64,000 nt of DNA from Shigella phage ESh25: sequence record ON528735; one strand, given 5' to 3'. The translations under genes were made by a program, and so were the position numbers. Shown here piece after piece: positions 3,131-64,000 of the stretch. The notes beneath the pieces were generated by a model. It ran no database searches. It was given only the letters and a program-made list of their open reading frames with translations, and was not told the origin of the DNA. Numbering within the stretch: the stretch's first letter is position 1; each line of letters begins with the position of its first letter.

Positions 3131-3438
3131 CGGAAAGTCCCTGCAATTGGAATACTAACAATACGCCCAGTATCTAAAATTCGCTGATATAATCTTTGTG
3201 TGTCTACGTCAGGCTTAACATGTTTAACTTCTATTTTATTAAACCAAAATTTACGTGGAGTCTCAACTAATCTTGGAATTCCTTTACCTAAAGCTAGTCG
3301 ATACTGCTCTTTAAGAGTGGTAAATACTTTATCAGCAATCTTCCATTCAAAAAATACAGCAGGACGATGTTCATCAAGCGGAACTGGCGCCGTAAATCCG
3401 TCTTTGTCTCGGTAAACTATCGCATATACATAAACCAT
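3127..3438 (-). CDS. hypothetical protein (dda.1 position)
   Basis: 103 aa ORF overlapping dda start by 4 nt. Confidence 0.55.
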   Translation of the reverse strand: MVYVYAIVYRDKDGFTAPVPLDEHRPAVFFEWKIADKVFTTLKEQYRLALGKGIPRLVETPRKFWFNKIEVKHVKPDVDTQRLYQRILDTGRIVSIPIAGTFR

Positions 3439-3439
3439 A

Positions 3440-4186
3440 TTATCCTCGGATAAGTTTAAAAATTGAACAATTTAGCGGGTATCCTCTTTTCAGTTTAAGT
3501 TTATCAATAAAAGACAAGTTTTGATACCGCTCTACACCTTGAATAATTTTATCACACATGTCATATTGCATTTCTGCTTCTGACAACTTTTTCACAGTTT
3601 TCCAATCCGAGCCTTTAAGAAGAACGTTCAATTTAACAACTTCAGCGCCTTCTGCTATGCGAGAACCATCAATACGAGCTTTAAGTGCTATAATCGTTAG
3701 CTTAACGTCAGAAGTTTGTTTTGATTTAGAAAGCTGAGAAATGTGTTCAATTCGATTTTCACGTTTTTTCTGTATAGCTTTAATTTGATTATAAGTCTTT
3801 TTGATTTTAGCCCATTTCTTTTCATCTAAATTTAGTTTATGAACTTTTTTCGCAGATGAACGACCAATTCGCAAAGCAAATAAATCACGCTTTTCAATCA
3901 ACTCTTCTAAAGTATAATCAGAACGAAATGTATTATACTTTTTCTTTACTGCAATAACATTCCCTTTAATGTATCCAACGTTATTATCAAAACGTTCTAA
4001 TGATAATTTCTCTCCTTCAATACGATTATCAAAAGGTTCTCCCGAGTAAGCGCAAACTTTCTGATCTAAAATGTTCTTAATGTAATTGAAGTCTAAGTTA
4101 AAATCTTTAGAACGTCTTTTAGCAGATGCCTGAGTGTGCTCTAAACGACGTTTAATTTTACGAATTTGATTATTAGACAGTTTCAT
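3440..4186 (-). CDS. basic, Lys/Arg-rich protein; possibly Srd-like
   Basis: 248 aa; position between modA and dda where T4 has srd; assignment by synteny only. Confidence 0.45.
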   Translation of the reverse strand: MKLSNNQIRKIKRRLEHTQASAKRRSKDFNLDFNYIKNILDQKVCAYSGEPFDNRIEGEKLSLERFDNNVGYIKGNVIAVKKKYNTFRSDYTLEELIEKRDLFALRIGRSSAKKVHKLNLDEKKWAKIKKTYNQIKAIQKKRENRIEHISQLSKSKQTSDVKLTIIALKARIDGSRIAEGAEVVKLNVLLKGSDWKTVKKLSEAEMQYDMCDKIIQGVERYQNLSFIDKLKLKRGYPLNCSIFKLIRG

Positions 4187-4306
4187 ATTTTTCTCACATC
4201 TTACGGACGATTTAATACTTACTATAACATTTTTACCTTAACTTGTAAACAACTTTATGTAAAATGCTTTAAAAATTTCATGGTATAATGAATCTAAGTC
4301 CTTCCA

Positions 4307-4909
4307 TTATAGATTAAATCCTTCAAAATCAAGAGTATAGATAGTGTATGTTGAATACTTTTTATACTCATATCTATCTGCAATTCTAAATACACTTCCA
4401 GCTGGTATCATTACTTCTTGTTCATCTGAAACTAATTCCATATTACGATAACGATGGCTATCCGGAAACTTAAAGTTTGGATTGTATTCTTTACAGCGTA
4501 GAGCTTTTATAGCATACTCCTGGAAATTGAATACCATAGGAGCTTTGAATTCAAAAATAACTTGTGTGTTATACTCTAAACCGGAAGCAAAATGTAGAGC
4601 TATATTTTTATCATATGAAGCTGATACGACTTTATCAAATGTAATAATATCAATTCCTTGATTTAATACTTGCTTAGTCTCAGCTGGAACACCTCTCCAA
4701 AGAGGTTTATCGTTTGGAACCAAACGAGATTTGATTATTTCATTTAACCAAGTATGGTCATCTGGCTTATTAGTAATACAATGAATTAAAAGTTCAATTT
4801 CAGATAAATTAAACCCTTCAGAAAGCAATTCTTCACGAATAGAAGCACGCACCGATGCATCCATTGATTTTATTTTAAAATCTTTTAGTTGCATTACTGA
4901 GTATTTCAT
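4307..4909 (-). CDS. modA: ADP-ribosyltransferase ModA
   Basis: 200 aa; R...S...E(xE) ART-like motifs (LWRG, SASYD, EQEVMIP); paralog of adjacent ORF; T4 synteny. Confidence 0.75.
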   Translation of the reverse strand: MKYSVMQLKDFKIKSMDASVRASIREELLSEGFNLSEIELLIHCITNKPDDHTWLNEIIKSRLVPNDKPLWRGVPAETKQVLNQGIDIITFDKVVSASYDKNIALHFASGLEYNTQVIFEFKAPMVFNFQEYAIKALRCKEYNPNFKFPDSHRYRNMELVSDEQEVMIPAGSVFRIADRYEYKKYSTYTIYTLDFEGFNL

Positions 4910-10226: not shown

Positions 10227-10391
10227 TTACTCTTCTTTTTCTTTAGATTCCTCTTTTTTCTTTTTAGGAATCTGTTCAGGACCTTTATTTACTACAGCGC
10301 CTGACGTTGTTCCAGTAGAGATATTTTCAGGATTACCACCTGAATCTCCAGCGACCATATCTTCTTTGATAAATTCTTTAAACGTTTTCAT
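10227..10391 (-). CDS. hypothetical small Gly/Lys-rich protein (61.1 position)
   Basis: 54 aa ORF below track threshold, found by manual translation; ATG one nt after upstream stop. Confidence 0.4.
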   Translation of the reverse strand: MKTFKEFIKEDMVAGDSGGNPENISTGTTSGAVVNKGPEQIPKKKKEESKEKEE

Positions 10392-55533: not shown

Positions 55534-55950
55534 TTAAATGTAAATATTTTTGCCGTAATACTTATACCAGTGTGGCTTCATTAAAATTTTTTCATCGAGT
55601 CGTTGTTGACTCAACTTAATAGCTGATTTGCATGGATTATAATCATTTTTCCATTCTACTGGAATATCGCTGATGTCAGGAACTTCAGTATCTTTTATAC
55701 TGAACCCGCGTTTTAAGCATTCCGTTATAATGTCCGATTGACGCTTTCGCAAAAATTCTAACTTATCGTAAAAGAAAGTAACATGACCAGAACCTAAAAT
55801 AAATTTAGAAGATATTTTAAAATCTTTAACGCGCTTACCGTTTGCCACATGCTTACGAACTATACCAAAAACACGCGGCAATTCACGGTATTCTGCGATT
55901 AAATGTTGATCAGCAAGTTCAGATACTAAAGTCAAATTAATACGAGTCAT
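55534..55950 (-). CDS. denV: endonuclease V (pyrimidine dimer glycosylase)
   Basis: 138 aa; recognised as T4 DenV. Confidence 0.9.
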
Positions 55951-55975
55951 TTTATCCCTCCAAGTAACTGTGAAT

Positions 55976-56005
55976 ATACTATCACAATTCTAGGAGAAAG
56001 TAAAC
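55976..56005 (-). promoter_or_regulatory. early promoter for denV
   Basis: GTTTAC -35 and TAGTAT -10, then SD GGAGGG. Confidence 0.5.
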
Positions 56006-56009
56006 AACT

Positions 56010-56540
<531 letters not shown>

Positions 56541-59477: not shown

Positions 59478-59813
59478 TTATTCTTCGTCTAGCTCATCGA
59501 TAAAGACGTTGATGGCCTCGATAACGGCATCATTGATAGCCAATAAAATAAAATCATCGTCAGTACCTTTAGAAGATTCTAAAGCATTGATATATGCTTG
59601 GTTGGCGAGTTCCCAAGCCTTTTTAAAATAAGGAGCTTCATCATCGGGGCCAACGAAACGTACGCCTTCAAAGATACGTTTGGCATAATCTAACACCCAT
59701 TGTACAGGCATGTTTTGAGAACGTTCGTTAAACTCTTTAAAGTCCTTAGATTCAAAAAGCTCTTCAGGATAATTATTTCTATTACAAAAAGCTTTACTAA
59801 AGTTACGTTTCAT
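59478..59813 (-). CDS. hypothetical protein
   Basis: 111 aa ORF. Confidence 0.45.
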   Translation of the reverse strand: MKRNFSKAFCNRNNYPEELFESKDFKEFNERSQNMPVQWVLDYAKRIFEGVRFVGPDDEAPYFKKAWELANQAYINALESSKGTDDDFILLAINDAVIEAINVFIDELDEE

Positions 59814-59869
59814 AATGTTTTCCTCATTTGTATAGGCTCATAATATCTCAATCATGAGCCTATGTAAAC

Positions 59870-60133
59870 TTATTTCATATTATTGAAATATTCTTCTGCG
59901 ATTTCGTCGTTATCATGGTAAACTTTAGAAGACAGTTTAACATAACTTTCAGCAGTGAACATGTTAATCACAACCTTTACAGTATACCACTGACCGTCTT
60001 CATTGCCCATTACCGCATAAGTTTCAAACATCGGATGATCAGGACCGATAACTTTAATATCATTCACTGTACGACCGAAATCTTCTGAAACACATTTCAT
60101 AAAGAAGTTGAACAGTTCGCCGTAATTATCCAT
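59870..60133 (-). CDS. hypothetical protein
   Basis: Track TTG start trimmed to ATG (MDNYGELF...). Confidence 0.45.
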   Translation of the reverse strand: MDNYGELFNFFMKCVSEDFGRTVNDIKVIGPDHPMFETYAVMGNEDGQWYTVKVVINMFTAESYVKLSSKVYHDNDEIAEEYFNNMK

Positions 60134-60145
60134 TTCGTTCTCCAA

Positions 60146-60230
60146 GTTGTTTTCTGTATCAGTAGTTGATAGTTGTATAGTACCATGGAAGAACAGGGAT
60201 GTAAACAGTTTTGTGAAAAAATTTTTAAAA
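60146..60230 (-). repeat. promoter-leader cassette copy C
   Basis: See 17034..17110. Confidence 0.6.
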
Positions 60231-60343
60231 AGTTTTAGGGAATTCTAGGGTCAGGAGGGGCAATTAAAAGATAGGATAATATATTATAAAGGGTAGAAAC
60301 TAAATGATGCCTAGAGAGGCCCGGAAAGGCCTAGATACCAAAA

Positions 60344-60367
60344 AGCCCCAACCTTTTGGTCGGGGCT
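60344..60367 (-). terminator. intrinsic terminator hairpin (8 bp stem)
   Basis: agccccaaccttttggtcggggct. Confidence 0.55.
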
Positions 60368-60374
60368 AAGAATG

Positions 60375-60848
60375 TTATTTGATTTGTTTAGCAGACCAAA
60401 TGTGGTCTTTAATAATTTTTTGGATGTCTTCAACATACTCTAGGTCATGAGCATGTGGGTTATCTTTGAAACTATAAGCACGAGCTAGCTTTTGGCCTTC
60501 AGTTTTGATTACTAAAAGCTCTTTAAGGATAGCTTCATATTTAGAGATAATTCCTTTAACAATATTTTTTTCTTGTGTAGTTTTAGGGTCTGCTTTAGGA
60601 GCAGGTTTACCCGAAGCCTTTGCAAAAGCAGCGCCAGTAGCAACCAAACTTTTCCAGGCCATACTAACTGCATTCCCTGTAAATCCTTCGGCTTTCATAT
60701 CACGAGCAAATTGGAATCGTGATTCATCGGAAGCATCTTTATAGGAATATTTACCCGCGGCAATGGCTGCTTTTGCGACAGCTTGAATTTCGGTGCTAGA
60801 TGCTTCATTTAACACCGCTTCATTTAAAAATTGAGCATATGATTTCAT
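60375..60848 (-). CDS. protein with capsid-targeting-like N-terminus (candidate internal protein)
   Basis: 157 aa; N-terminus MKSYAQFLNE resembles the T4 internal-protein targeting sequence MKTYQEFIAE; Ala/Lys-rich. Confidence 0.5.
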   Translation of the reverse strand: MKSYAQFLNEAVLNEASSTEIQAVAKAAIAAGKYSYKDASDESRFQFARDMKAEGFTGNAVSMAWKSLVATGAAFAKASGKPAPKADPKTTQEKNIVKGIISKYEAILKELLVIKTEGQKLARAYSFKDNPHAHDLEYVEDIQKIIKDHIWSAKQIK

Positions 60849-60898
60849 CTTATTTCCTGTTTTAATTCGTGGTTTTAATATACTTATTTATACCAAAA

Positions 60899-60922
60899 AG
60901 CCCCAACCTTTCGGTCGGGGCT
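60899..60922 (-). terminator. intrinsic terminator hairpin at end of tRNA operon
   Basis: agccccaacctttcggtcggggct, near-duplicate of hairpin at 60344. Confidence 0.55.
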
Positions 60923-60969
60923 AAGCCTTGCGGCAACCTTGTCGGGGTTCCACCTGCTAAGGCAAGTGT

Positions 60970-61066
60970 TTGTACGAAACGCCGGGATTCGAACCCGGTT
61001 ATTAAGCAGTTGACGCTACTTAATATTTTTAAAAGGCCATATCTCGACCATATCCGAACGTTCCGT
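60970..61066 (-). ncRNA. tRNA-like stable RNA (acceptor stem + T-arm, enlarged interior, no encoded CCA)
   Basis: ACGGAAC...GTTTCGT acceptor pairing and CCGGG-TTCGAAT-CCCGG T-arm; reminiscent of T4 small stable RNAs. Confidence 0.35.
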
Positions 61067-61238
61067 CAAAAACGCTACTCGGCTTACGGCAAAGATATTT
61101 CCTCGAATCGATAATTCGGTGCGCCGTTTCTGCTGTGATATAAGGGGACATTAACAAAACATAAAGATTTATTAATGCCAGTCCTTAAACAGGGAACATC
61201 AGTCCGACGACTTACCGGTAGCGACCCGGCTTCTTGTT

Positions 61239-61314
61239 TGGTCGAGGCAGTAGGAATCGAACCTACGACCTAGGACTTAGAAGGTCCTTGCTCTTCCTTC
61301 TGAGCTATGCCTCG
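61239..61314 (-). tRNA. tRNA-Arg (anticodon UCU)
   Basis: Manual fold: 7 bp acceptor, D and T arms, loop CTTCTAA, encoded CCA. Confidence 0.75.
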
Positions 61315-61743: not shown

Positions 61744-61751
61744 TATTTATA
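61744..61751 (-). promoter_or_regulatory. possible late promoter TATAAATA at segB 3' end
   Basis: Exact 8-mer on minus strand overlapping last segB codons, a few nt 5' of tRNA-Ser; could be chance in AT-rich DNA. Confidence 0.3.
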
Positions 61752-62355
61752 TATTGTTAATTTGATTTAGAATTCTTTTTGCTTGAGTATGACTTACGCC
61801 AATATGCTTAGCATATTTAGATAATTCACCCCGCTTAGAAAAATCATATAATTTAGAAATTTCTATTCTTCTTTTTCTTTCATCCGCAGAAACTTTTGCT
61901 TCGTTTGCTTTTGCTATTTTACGTTTAGCTTCTTGAGAATGAGTTTTACCAGCAAAGCCATTTTTCATTAATCCATTTGAAGACCATCCTTTTAATTTTC
62001 CGTTAGAATGTGCCTTTTTAACACCCAATGAAATTAATTCGCGTTGCTGATCTGTCATAGGATAATTATTTATATGATCCCATCCACCTTCACCTCCAAG
62101 TTTTAAATTATACACATCTGGTCTATTTAAAAACTCTTCTGTGACAATATTTTTCTCGGCTTCAAGCATAGATTCTTTATCATCAAAATACTCTAATATT
62201 TCTTTAGAAAAATTTTCTATGCCATATTTATCTTGGGCTCTTTTTAATAATTTACCAGAACCCATATATCCATCATCTAAATTTTCGGTAGAATGCACAC
62301 CAATATAAATTTTATTATTAATTTTATTTGTTATTTTATAAAGATAAAAATGCAT
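61747..62355 (-). CDS. segB: GIY-YIG homing endonuclease SegB
   Basis: FYLYKITNK...IYIGV motif; embedded in the tRNA cluster as in T4; track ORF starts at ATG 62397 (216 aa), I prefer ATG 62355 next to the motif. Confidence 0.8.
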   Translation of the reverse strand: MHFYLYKITNKINNKIYIGVHSTENLDDGYMGSGKLLKRAQDKYGIENFSKEILEYFDDKESMLEAEKNIVTEEFLNRPDVYNLKLGGEGGWDHINNYPMTDQQRELISLGVKKAHSNGKLKGWSSNGLMKNGFAGKTHSQEAKRKIAKANEAKVSADERKRRIEISKLYDFSKRGELSKYAKHIGVSHTQAKRILNQINNI

Positions 62356-62401
62356 ATCAGTCCCTAATAAAGAACTGAGCGTCTCACGACGAGTCATAAA
62401 T

Positions 62402-63596: not shown

Positions 63597-63660
63597 TTTA
63601 TTCTCCTCAGTAGTTGATAGGGTAATAGTATCACTACTAAAACCCCGTGTAAACAACTTT
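63597..63660 (-). repeat. promoter-leader cassette (second type)
   Basis: GTTTACA-17nt-TACTAT...tatcaactactGAGGAGAAtaaaATG; partner of the cassette in 63925..64000 and related to 43940..44010. Confidence 0.5.
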
Positions 63661-63666
63661 GTGAAA

Positions 63667-63924
63667 TTATTTTAAATCTTCTAATCGTTTCTTCATCTTA
63701 GAACCATTTTTAGCGATTTCTCCTGCGTCAGAGCATAATGCTAAAAGTGCTTTAACTTTAGTTTGGTCTCCTTTAAAAGACGAAGGATCGACTGCAGCAG
63801 CAAGTTCTTTAATACGAGAGAAAAGACGCTCAGCTTCAGCTAAAGCCATTCCAAGCTTTACTTCCATACCATGAGAAGATTCAGTGATAATAGTTTCTGT
63901 AGCAAACTCTTTATAAGTTTTCAT
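63667..63924 (-). CDS. candidate internal protein with capsid-targeting-like N-terminus (IPI-locus position)
   Basis: 85 aa; N-terminus MKTYKEFATE resembles MKTYQEFIAE; sits just past the tRNA cluster where T4 has ipI. Confidence 0.5.
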   Translation of the reverse strand: MKTYKEFATETIITESSHGMEVKLGMALAEAERLFSRIKELAAAVDPSSFKGDQTKVKALLALCSDAGEIAKNGSKMKKRLEDLK

Positions 63925-64000
63925 TTTTATTTTCCTAATTAATTTTGATGAGGTAATAGTATCACTACCTCATCAGTGTGTAAACAACTTTGTGAAATTA
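63925..64000 (-). promoter_or_regulatory. early promoter plus leader for the IP-like gene
   Basis: GTTTACA...TACTAT hexamers and SD before ATG 63924. Confidence 0.5.

Follow-up and report, generated by a model that had tools for sequence, protein, structure and literature searches.

A candidate internal head protein with a putative capsid targeting sequence, encoded between rnaC and e.8 in Shigella phage ESh25

Growth on ECOR17 requires Ip3, one of the internal proteins (Ips) of the T-even phages. All three Ips of phage T4 are injected inhibitors, with Ip1, Ip2 and Ip3 each acting on a distinct GmrSD type IV enzyme (PMC12373910), and therefore every further protein that bears a capsid targeting sequence (CTS) is a prime candidate for an anti-defense role. 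The T4 proteins IPII and IPIII both open with MKTYQEFIAE↓A, in which the arrow marks the cleavage site. Amber-suppressor work on IPIII assigned CTS residues 4 and 7 to targeting and residues 8 and 10 to processing (PMC9026906). Here, we analyze ORF157, an open reading frame (ORF) of 157 codons at 60375..60848 on the minus strand of a 64,000-nucleotide stretch of Shigella phage ESh25 (sequence record ON528735; the window hereafter), with an ATG start and a stop codon at 60375-60377. The original prediction, made from the DNA letters, had put ORF157 forward as a candidate internal protein. Our analysis supports this proposal, in that every defining feature of T-even internal proteins that can be read from a sequence is present in ORF157, and the protein is very probably a member of this class.

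The N-terminus of ORF157

ORF157 begins with a 15-residue putative propeptide, MKSYAQFLNE↓AVLNE↓ (60804..60848, minus), that contains two hydrophobic-x-Glu sites, after E10 and E15. The resemblance of this start to the T4 sequence MKTYQEFIAE, noted before our analysis, holds on inspection: 5/10 residues are identical, Ser replaces Thr, Gln replaces Glu, Leu replaces Ile, and Ala follows the Glu. Are the residues that matter in IPIII among those retained? All four critical CTS positions are kept in ORF157 as Tyr4, Phe7, Leu8 (Ile in IPIII) and Glu10. The putative sites for the prohead protease gp21 are L8-N9-E10↓A11 and L13-N14-E15↓A16, each with Leu as the hydrophobic P3 residue and Glu in P1. 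A tandem 15-nt duplication (TTTTTAAATGAAGCG / GTGTTAAATGAAGCA, 12/15 identical; 60801..60830, minus) accounts for the second LNE↓A site. Propeptides with several sites have been described for related proteases, where the multiplicity is believed to help clear the fragments (PMC5694885). The homologues P0004, P0005 and P0011 have a single cleavage site.

The CTS-like start is a property of the whole ORF157 family. Every full-length homologue found by HMMER opens with such a motif, as in MKTYNEFLNE, MKFKEFLAE, MLEYSEFLKE, MLKFNEFLAE, MINFSDFLNE, MKSFSSFLNE and MISFNEFV..LITE. Position 4 is Tyr or Phe across the family, F7 is invariant, and E15 of ORF157, the Glu located immediately before the conserved folded domain, is invariant in the family alignment. 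The motif persists in homologues that are only 25-40% identical elsewhere and that come from four genera of the Tevenvirinae. Because only 22 of the first 33 nucleotides match between ORF157 and T4 ipIII, the conservation resides at the peptide level and does not reflect a shared DNA recombination linker.

The likeness of ORF157 to the T4 CTS is not due to chance. A strict CTS pattern, ^MK[ST][YF].[EQ]F[ILVA].E, was scanned against 1206 combinations of start codon and ORF of at least 40 residues in the window, and it matched three times: in Ip5 (63667-63924), in ORF157 and in a 54-residue ORF that resembles gene 61.1. A looser pattern, applied to the T4, PP01 and fD1 loci and to ~104 kb of phage AdolfPortmann outside the window, matched only annotated internal proteins and members of the ORF157 family. 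The 54-residue ORF (10227-10391, minus; phrog_1823, of unknown function) starts with MKTFKEFIKE, identical to T4 IPI over the first seven residues. It lies in an early operon directly upstream of the primase gene, follows the preceding stop codon by no more than one base and has no late promoter motif. This ORF may be either an unrecognized packaged peptide or a caution that the CTS motif is not enough to show packaging.

The full ORF157 product has a mass of 17.3 kDa and an isoelectric point (pI) of 9.2, and its sequence opens MKSYAQFLNEAVLNEASSTEIQ / MKSYAQFLNEAVLNEASS. It matches phrog_2280, a group of unknown function in PHROGs, with an E-value of 3.7e-59. Homologues are found in 511 phage records from hosts of the genera Escherichia, Shigella, Yersinia, Klebsiella, Salmonella, Citrobacter and Serratia, and all of these records carry the label 'hypothetical protein'; in UniRef, a single entry of the family (Klebsiella phage KPKp) bears the name 'Internal head protein'. 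The ratio of nonsynonymous to synonymous substitution rates (dN/dS) is 0.06 against the copy of Yersinia phage fD1 and 0.10 against the Mosigvirus copy, and ORF157 is thus real and constrained. These ratios, the 511 conserved copies and peptides from mass spectrometry rule out that ORF157 is not a real gene. A secreted or membrane protein was also ruled out, since inspection of the N-terminus (no predictor was run) reveals no hydrophobic segment.

Outside the CTS, ORF157 stands apart from described proteins. BLAST comparison with IPI, IPII, IPIII, IpIV, Ip10 and Ip5 detects no similarity beyond the CTS. A HMMER profile search of 1.84 billion representatives returned 13 proteins, apparently all members or fragments of the ORF157 family, and no link to any other family. 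The PHROGs search returned only the group of unknown function to which ORF157 itself belongs, and sequence searches of Pfam, NCBIfam and PDB gave nothing above noise. BLAST against the T4 and PP01 Ips adds nothing to the CTS resemblance that is visible by eye.

Cassette architecture and the comparison with T4

ORF157 is bracketed by two 36-nt direct repeats, located upstream at 60890..60925 and downstream at 60335..60370 (both minus), with 97% identity between the copies. Each repeat contains a GC-rich hairpin with a subsequent T-run, together an intrinsic terminator. The upstream hairpin (60899-60922) ends the transcript of the tRNAs, rnaD and rnaC, and the downstream hairpin (60344-60367) ends the ORF157 transcript. 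Between the upstream hairpin and the gene lies the promoter motif TATAAATA (60885..60892, minus), 36 nt upstream of the ATG, which matches the T4 late-promoter consensus. The motif forms where GGTAT, at the tail of the upstream repeat, meets AAATA, so that the repeat supplies part of it. A Shine-Dalgarno sequence, AGGA, can be read 6 nt before the ATG (60855..60858, minus), and no sigma-70-like site is found upstream of ORF157. The promoter and terminators of its own that had been attributed to the gene are accordingly identified in these two hairpins and TATAAATA.

The cassette layout is conserved beyond close relatives. The order terminator, TATAAATA, a spacer of ~30-38 nt and ATG recurs in Tequatrovirus, Jiaodavirus and Tegunavirus with differing hairpin sequences, and it is found in fD1, in Klebsiella phage KpV477 (Jiaodavirus), whose hairpin is unrelated, and in Yersinia phage fHe-Yen9-01 (Tegunavirus). 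In the Mosigvirus copy, a 7/8 variant, AATAAATA, stands in place of TATAAATA. In all four genera, the ORF157-family gene lies just downstream of the tRNA cluster, and its position is therefore ancestral rather than exotic.

How does the locus differ from that of T4? T4 contains no gene between rnaC and e.8 and has one copy of the hairpin. When the two sequences are aligned, the ORF157 cassette appears as a precise 555-bp insertion or deletion with the 36-nt direct repeats at both bounds. The single T4 hairpin is a hybrid, with a loop like that of the upstream copy and a tail like that of the downstream copy, and for this reason the T4 state looks like a deletion by recombination between repeats. 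Judging from this alignment, T4 probably lost the ORF157 gene through such an event. The original prediction was correct in calling the position non-T4, as T4 lacks the gene, and the same position is filled in the four genera. Its statement that the gene sits just before the tRNA cluster stands in plus-strand coordinates only; in the sense of transcription, the gene lies downstream of the tRNAs, rnaD and rnaC.

The predicted mature product, its probable packaging and its proposed function

Cleavage at the putative gp21 sites would yield a mature protein of 142-147 residues, with a predicted mass of 15.5-16 kDa and a pI of 9.3-9.4. The full product contains 21 Lys, 3 Arg, 26 Ala and no Cys, with a net charge of +5, a composition like that of IPII and IPIII. 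Its N-terminal domain (residues 16-75; 60624..60803, minus) comprises three helices and is conserved across genera, with 56-58% identity to the homologues of Yersinia and Klebsiella phages. In the AF2 model, whose mean predicted local distance difference test score (pLDDT) is 75.6, the three-helix domain at residues 18-71 reaches pLDDT values of 84-91, residues 5-15 at the N-terminus are poorly ordered (pLDDT < 50) and the linker that follows the domain is disordered. This flexible linker, rich in Lys, Pro and Ala (residues 76-92, AKASGKPAPKADPKTTQ, net charge +3; 60573..60623, minus), leads to a C-terminal helical hairpin domain (residues 93-157; 60378..60572, minus) with a further L-K-E site at 108-110. 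The homologues of fHe-Yen9-01 and of Klebsiella phages have a different C-terminal domain. Searches of PDB, BFVD, Pfam and NCBIfam matched ORF157 to no known fold or family.

The boundary between the linker and the C-terminal domain is marked by an A7 homopolymer tract (60565..60571, minus). Database homologues on three sequence backgrounds end exactly at this tract, in both alternative frames; one frame gives products that end in ...QEKKYC*, and the second gives products that end in ...QEKISLKELSPNMKLSLKSF*. The KpV477 homologue has a premature TAA just past the linker. The truncations at the tract could reflect sequencing error in the homopolymer, decay of the gene or slippage, the last yielding an isoform with the N-terminal domain only.

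Evidence from virions comes from phage fD1, whose g140 has 157 residues and is 97% identical to ORF157. In liquid chromatography-tandem mass spectrometry of purified fD1 virions, g140 was particle-associated at the strict threshold, which requires ≥2 peptides and a mean spectral count of ≥2, and it was marked as having no T4 counterpart (PMC8309999 Table S3). In the same sample, the neighboring gene products e.7 and e.8 were undetected, and the CTS-bearing proteins g129 (IpIV-like) and g146 (IPI-like) were detected (PMC8309999). The peptides expected of ORF157 are the tryptic SY[A/T]QFLNEAVLNEASSTEIQAVAK / SYTQFLNEAVLNEASSTEIQAVAK from an intact N-terminus and the semi-tryptic AVLNEASSTEIQAVAK and ASSTEIQAVAK after cleavage. 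None of six expected peptides (0/6) appears in the partial mass-spectrometric tables of the Klebsiella ValerieMcCarty phages, which are not among the database matches, and no conclusion is drawn from them. The publication on phage fPS-2 includes no proteome.

We regard a T-even-type internal head protein with an injection and anti-defense job as the best explanation as a whole, and we hold it with moderate confidence. The analysis establishes that the gene is conserved and under purifying selection, that it has the CTS determinants and the cassette structure described above and that a 97%-identical protein was detected in a preparation of purified virions, and we infer late transcription, targeting, cleavage and injection and, above all, the anti-defense target. 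Late transcription of ORF157 would start at its own TATAAATA promoter, with a terminator on either side as insulation. As a CTS, the N-terminal 10-15 residues would attach the protein to the scaffolding core while the prohead assembles, and packaging via this CTS is probable. The prohead protease gp21 would then cleave after Glu10 and/or Glu15, the latter being the family-wide conserved site, and the released mature protein, basic and Lys-rich, would remain in the head with the DNA and be ejected with the genome into the next host. By analogy with Ip1, Ip2 and Ip3, the injected protein would most likely neutralize a first-response host defense, with a nuclease that attacks modified T-even DNA, such as a type IV or GmrSD-family enzyme, as the prime suspect. 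Given packaging, we consider the chances for and against a specific anti-defense role to be evenly balanced on the strength of this analogy.

A number of points weigh against this explanation. The fD1 preparation was not clean, since it contained 113-137 of the 277 phage proteins together with 672 host proteins and included DenV, lysozyme, NudE and rIIB (PMC8309999). For this reason, the detection of g140 is weak proof of packaging; it is in line with packaging and does not prove it. As far as the sequences compared can tell, the CTS of ORF157 is more diverged than that of any named Ip, and BLAST makes no link. The CTS motif alone is insufficient, because the 54-residue early-operon ORF, which is not known to be packaged, also has it. 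The regulation of ORF157 differs from that of T4 ipI, ipII and ipIII, where the promoters are sigma-70-like and TATAAATA is absent within 90 nt. TATAAATA alone is likewise weak evidence, because its count in the AT-rich window is not above chance (8 found versus 11 expected, several inside genes), and the count was dropped as evidence in favor of the conserved position across genera. ORF157 shows no sequence or fold similarity to IPI*, Ip2, Ip3 or any anti-defense protein. Finally, strong purifying selection (dN/dS ~0.1) is usually not seen in a fast arms-race effector, and the conserved ancestral position argues against such an effector as well.

The last two points bear on a serious rival, a general DNA-associated role, in which ORF157 would be packaged and would have no specific defense target, serving instead as a bulk basic protein for DNA charge or for packaging and ejection, as classically assumed for IPII and IPIII. 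The Lys/Ala-rich composition, the net charge and the KP-rich linker suit this role, and inside the T4 head, contacts between internal proteins and DNA phosphates are made by lysines only (PMC3012670). This phage has nothing at the ipII/ipIII locus, making a substitute bulk protein plausible, and the low dN/dS and the ancestral position in four genera fit it equally. However, T4 and many relatives live without ORF157, it has a folded two-domain architecture with a swappable C-terminal domain, and IPII and IPIII, formerly thought to be bulk proteins, proved to be specific GmrSD inhibitors (PMC12373910). We consider a bulk role unlikely.

Could ORF157 instead be expressed late and stay in the cytoplasm, or take part in assembly only, with a CTS resemblance that has no targeting function? 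The limited identity of its CTS to that of T4 (5/10), the CTS-like start of the early 61.1-like ORF, the cytoplasmic contamination of the fD1 virion proteome and the label 'hypothetical protein' in all database records but one would agree with a protein that is not packaged. Against this, the motif is kept at the peptide level in four genera despite divergence elsewhere in the protein, the experimentally critical CTS positions are retained, an invariant hydrophobic-x-Glu site stands just ahead of the folded domain, and e.7 and e.8 were undetected in the very sample that contained g140. These observations leave a non-packaged protein quite improbable. An accessory of the prohead core or scaffold like gp67 and gp68, which gp21 would cleave at multiple positions and which would leave the head as peptides, with no mature protein left to inject, would account for the two N-terminal sites and the internal L-K-E, for the helical, coiled-coil-like C-terminal hairpin often seen in scaffolds and for the late promoter motif, but it is very improbable given that the gene is dispensable and absent from T4, that at least 2 peptides were found in mature fD1 particles and that core proteins are encoded by conserved core-genome genes rather than cassettes.

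Returning to the injected internal protein that we favor, we put forward one more specific version tentatively and regard it as rather doubtful in its full form. In this version, phrog_2280 would be an ancestral Tevenvirinae Ip family that is expressed late and delivered by its CTS, was lost by T4 through repeat deletion and combines a conserved N-terminal effector with an exchangeable C-terminal domain, inhibiting a first-response defense other than the GmrSD subtypes targeted by Ip1-Ip3. In addition, the A7 tract might give rise to short (N-terminal domain only) and long isoforms.

Genomic context and comparison with known systems

Positions 59800-61300 of the window are 96-99% identical to many Tequatrovirus genomes (AdolfPortmann/Bas44, R5505, RB18, PP01 and others). 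The gene order is as in T4, with denV, e, nudE, e.3-e.8, rnaC, rnaD, the tRNA cluster and the ipI locus all on the minus strand. The rnaC homologue (60973-61111, minus) is identical to T4 at 136/139 positions and the rnaD homologue (61118-61237, minus) at 103/119, and tRNA-Arg (61239-61314) lies beyond rnaD. The ORF call of the e.8 homologue starts from TTG at 60145, but alignment with T4 places the actual start, an ATG, at 60133, giving 87 residues. The window encodes tRNAs for Gln, Leu, Gly, Ser, Thr, Met, Tyr, Asn and Arg, a set that differs from that of T4 (Gln, Leu, Gly, Pro, Ser, Thr, Ile and Arg). A GIY-YIG/NUMOD3 homing endonuclease of 216 residues (61747-62397, minus) is located between tRNA-Gly and tRNA-Ser; T4 segB is located between tRNA-Ile and tRNA-Arg.

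The only other recognized internal protein gene in the window encodes Ip5 (63667..63924, minus), an 85-residue protein that starts with MKTYKEFATE, matches phrog_3499 'internal head protein', lies at the T4 ipI locus and is identical to Ip5 of PP01. Its flanks at 63630-63665 and 63945-64000 (minus) carry two copies of an early-promoter-like sequence (tttcacaaagttgtttaca...gtgatactattacc), and Ip5 thus forms a second repeat-bracketed cassette, with a sigma-70-type promoter as in PeSL elements. At the ipI locus of AdolfPortmann, the closest relative, a 77-residue 'hypothetical protein' (853-1086 of the locus sequence, minus) has MKTYQEFIAE↓A as its start and phrog_8111 'internal virion protein' as its match, and represents an Ip beside ipI that the annotation misses. 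The ipI locus therefore differs even between phages that are 98-99% identical nearby. The place of ipII and ipIII (55951-56009) is empty, because denV (55534-55950) directly abuts the lysozyme gene e (56010-56504); it holds IpIV and Ip10 in PP01 and IPII and IPIII in T4. Apart from Ip5 and ORF157, no Ip candidate was seen in the window.

Phage fHe-Yen9-01 has tandem ORF157-family paralogues behind one terminator and TATAAATA, gp154 (MLQYNEFLKESLISE↓A) and gp153 (MLEYSEFLKELFCE↓A), and a nearby 52-residue ORF, gp156, that starts with MKTYIEFINE. Together, these three genes occupy 2700-2858, 3422-3991 and 4001-4537 of that locus sequence. This phage may carry a cluster of CTS-bearing genes by its tRNA region.

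CTS-bearing internal proteins are well known as a kind, and another Ip will not surprise a specialist. In the literature and annotations examined, which did not include the original Ip catalogue (Repoila et al. 1994), there is no description of the ORF157 family, of its locus and late-promoter cassette or of its spread over several genera. A text search of the literature gave no mention of RB32ORF132c and similar names, and no ORF157-family sequence was found in the available portion of the supplement text of the accessory-gene screen of Silas et al. The family was overlooked because it is missing from T4. Its carriers include phages of the BASEL collection and phages of the therapeutic type, and ORF157 could help to account for differences in host range among near-identical T-even phages. 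The variant form of its CTS and the doubled cleavage site widen the known sequence space for cargo packaging into T4-type heads. ORF157 is a widespread and testable candidate for an injected anti-defense factor that is absent from T4.

Among described systems, ORF157 most resembles T4 IPII and IPIII and the polymorphic T-even Ips (Ip4-Ip13, IpIV, Ip10 and Ip5). It shares the CTS M-K-[ST]-Y-x-[EQ]-F-[IL]-x-E↓A, and its mature part is small, basic, Lys/Ala-rich and free of Cys and is unrelated in sequence to other Ips. The gene is dispensable and lies in a plastic region near the tRNA cluster, with a presence that varies among close relatives, and T-even Ip genes display the same plasticity of dispensable cassettes (PMC3012670). 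Unlike these Ips, ORF157 is located between rnaC and e.8 rather than at the ipI or ipII/ipIII locus, a placement that is typical of Ips and not strictly defining. Furthermore, its CTS is diverged at S3, A5, Q6, L8 and N9, its cleavage motif is duplicated, and the late-promoter motif TATAAATA takes the place held by sigma-70-like promoters in T4 ipI, ipII and ipIII. Most named Ips are sporadic, whereas the ORF157 family occupies one conserved position in four genera.

With T4 IPI* (Ip1), a GmrSD inhibitor of characterized structure, ORF157 would share the delivery logic of a CTS, gp21 processing and injection. The fold of IPI* is compact, with helices on the flanks of its two beta sheets (PMC3012670), whereas the model of ORF157 consists of helices only, in two domains. 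The two proteins have no sequence similarity, and the IPI propeptide consists of 19 residues.

The cassette as a whole is comparable to the PeSL cassettes of phages RB49 and phi1, modules of a promoter and a stem-loop by which ORFans are shuffled (PMC2839356). In both, repeated stem-loops enclose one accessory ORF that has a promoter of its own. The presence or absence of ORF157 can likewise be explained by recombination between flanking repeats, the mechanism described in RB49 and phi1 (PMC2839356). PeSL elements use a strong early sigma-70 promoter, whereas the promoter of ORF157 is of the late type and its repeat is a 36-nt terminator hairpin. Moreover, unlike PeSL cassettes, the ORF157 cassette has been seen at one locus only, in one place per genome in the 511 records.

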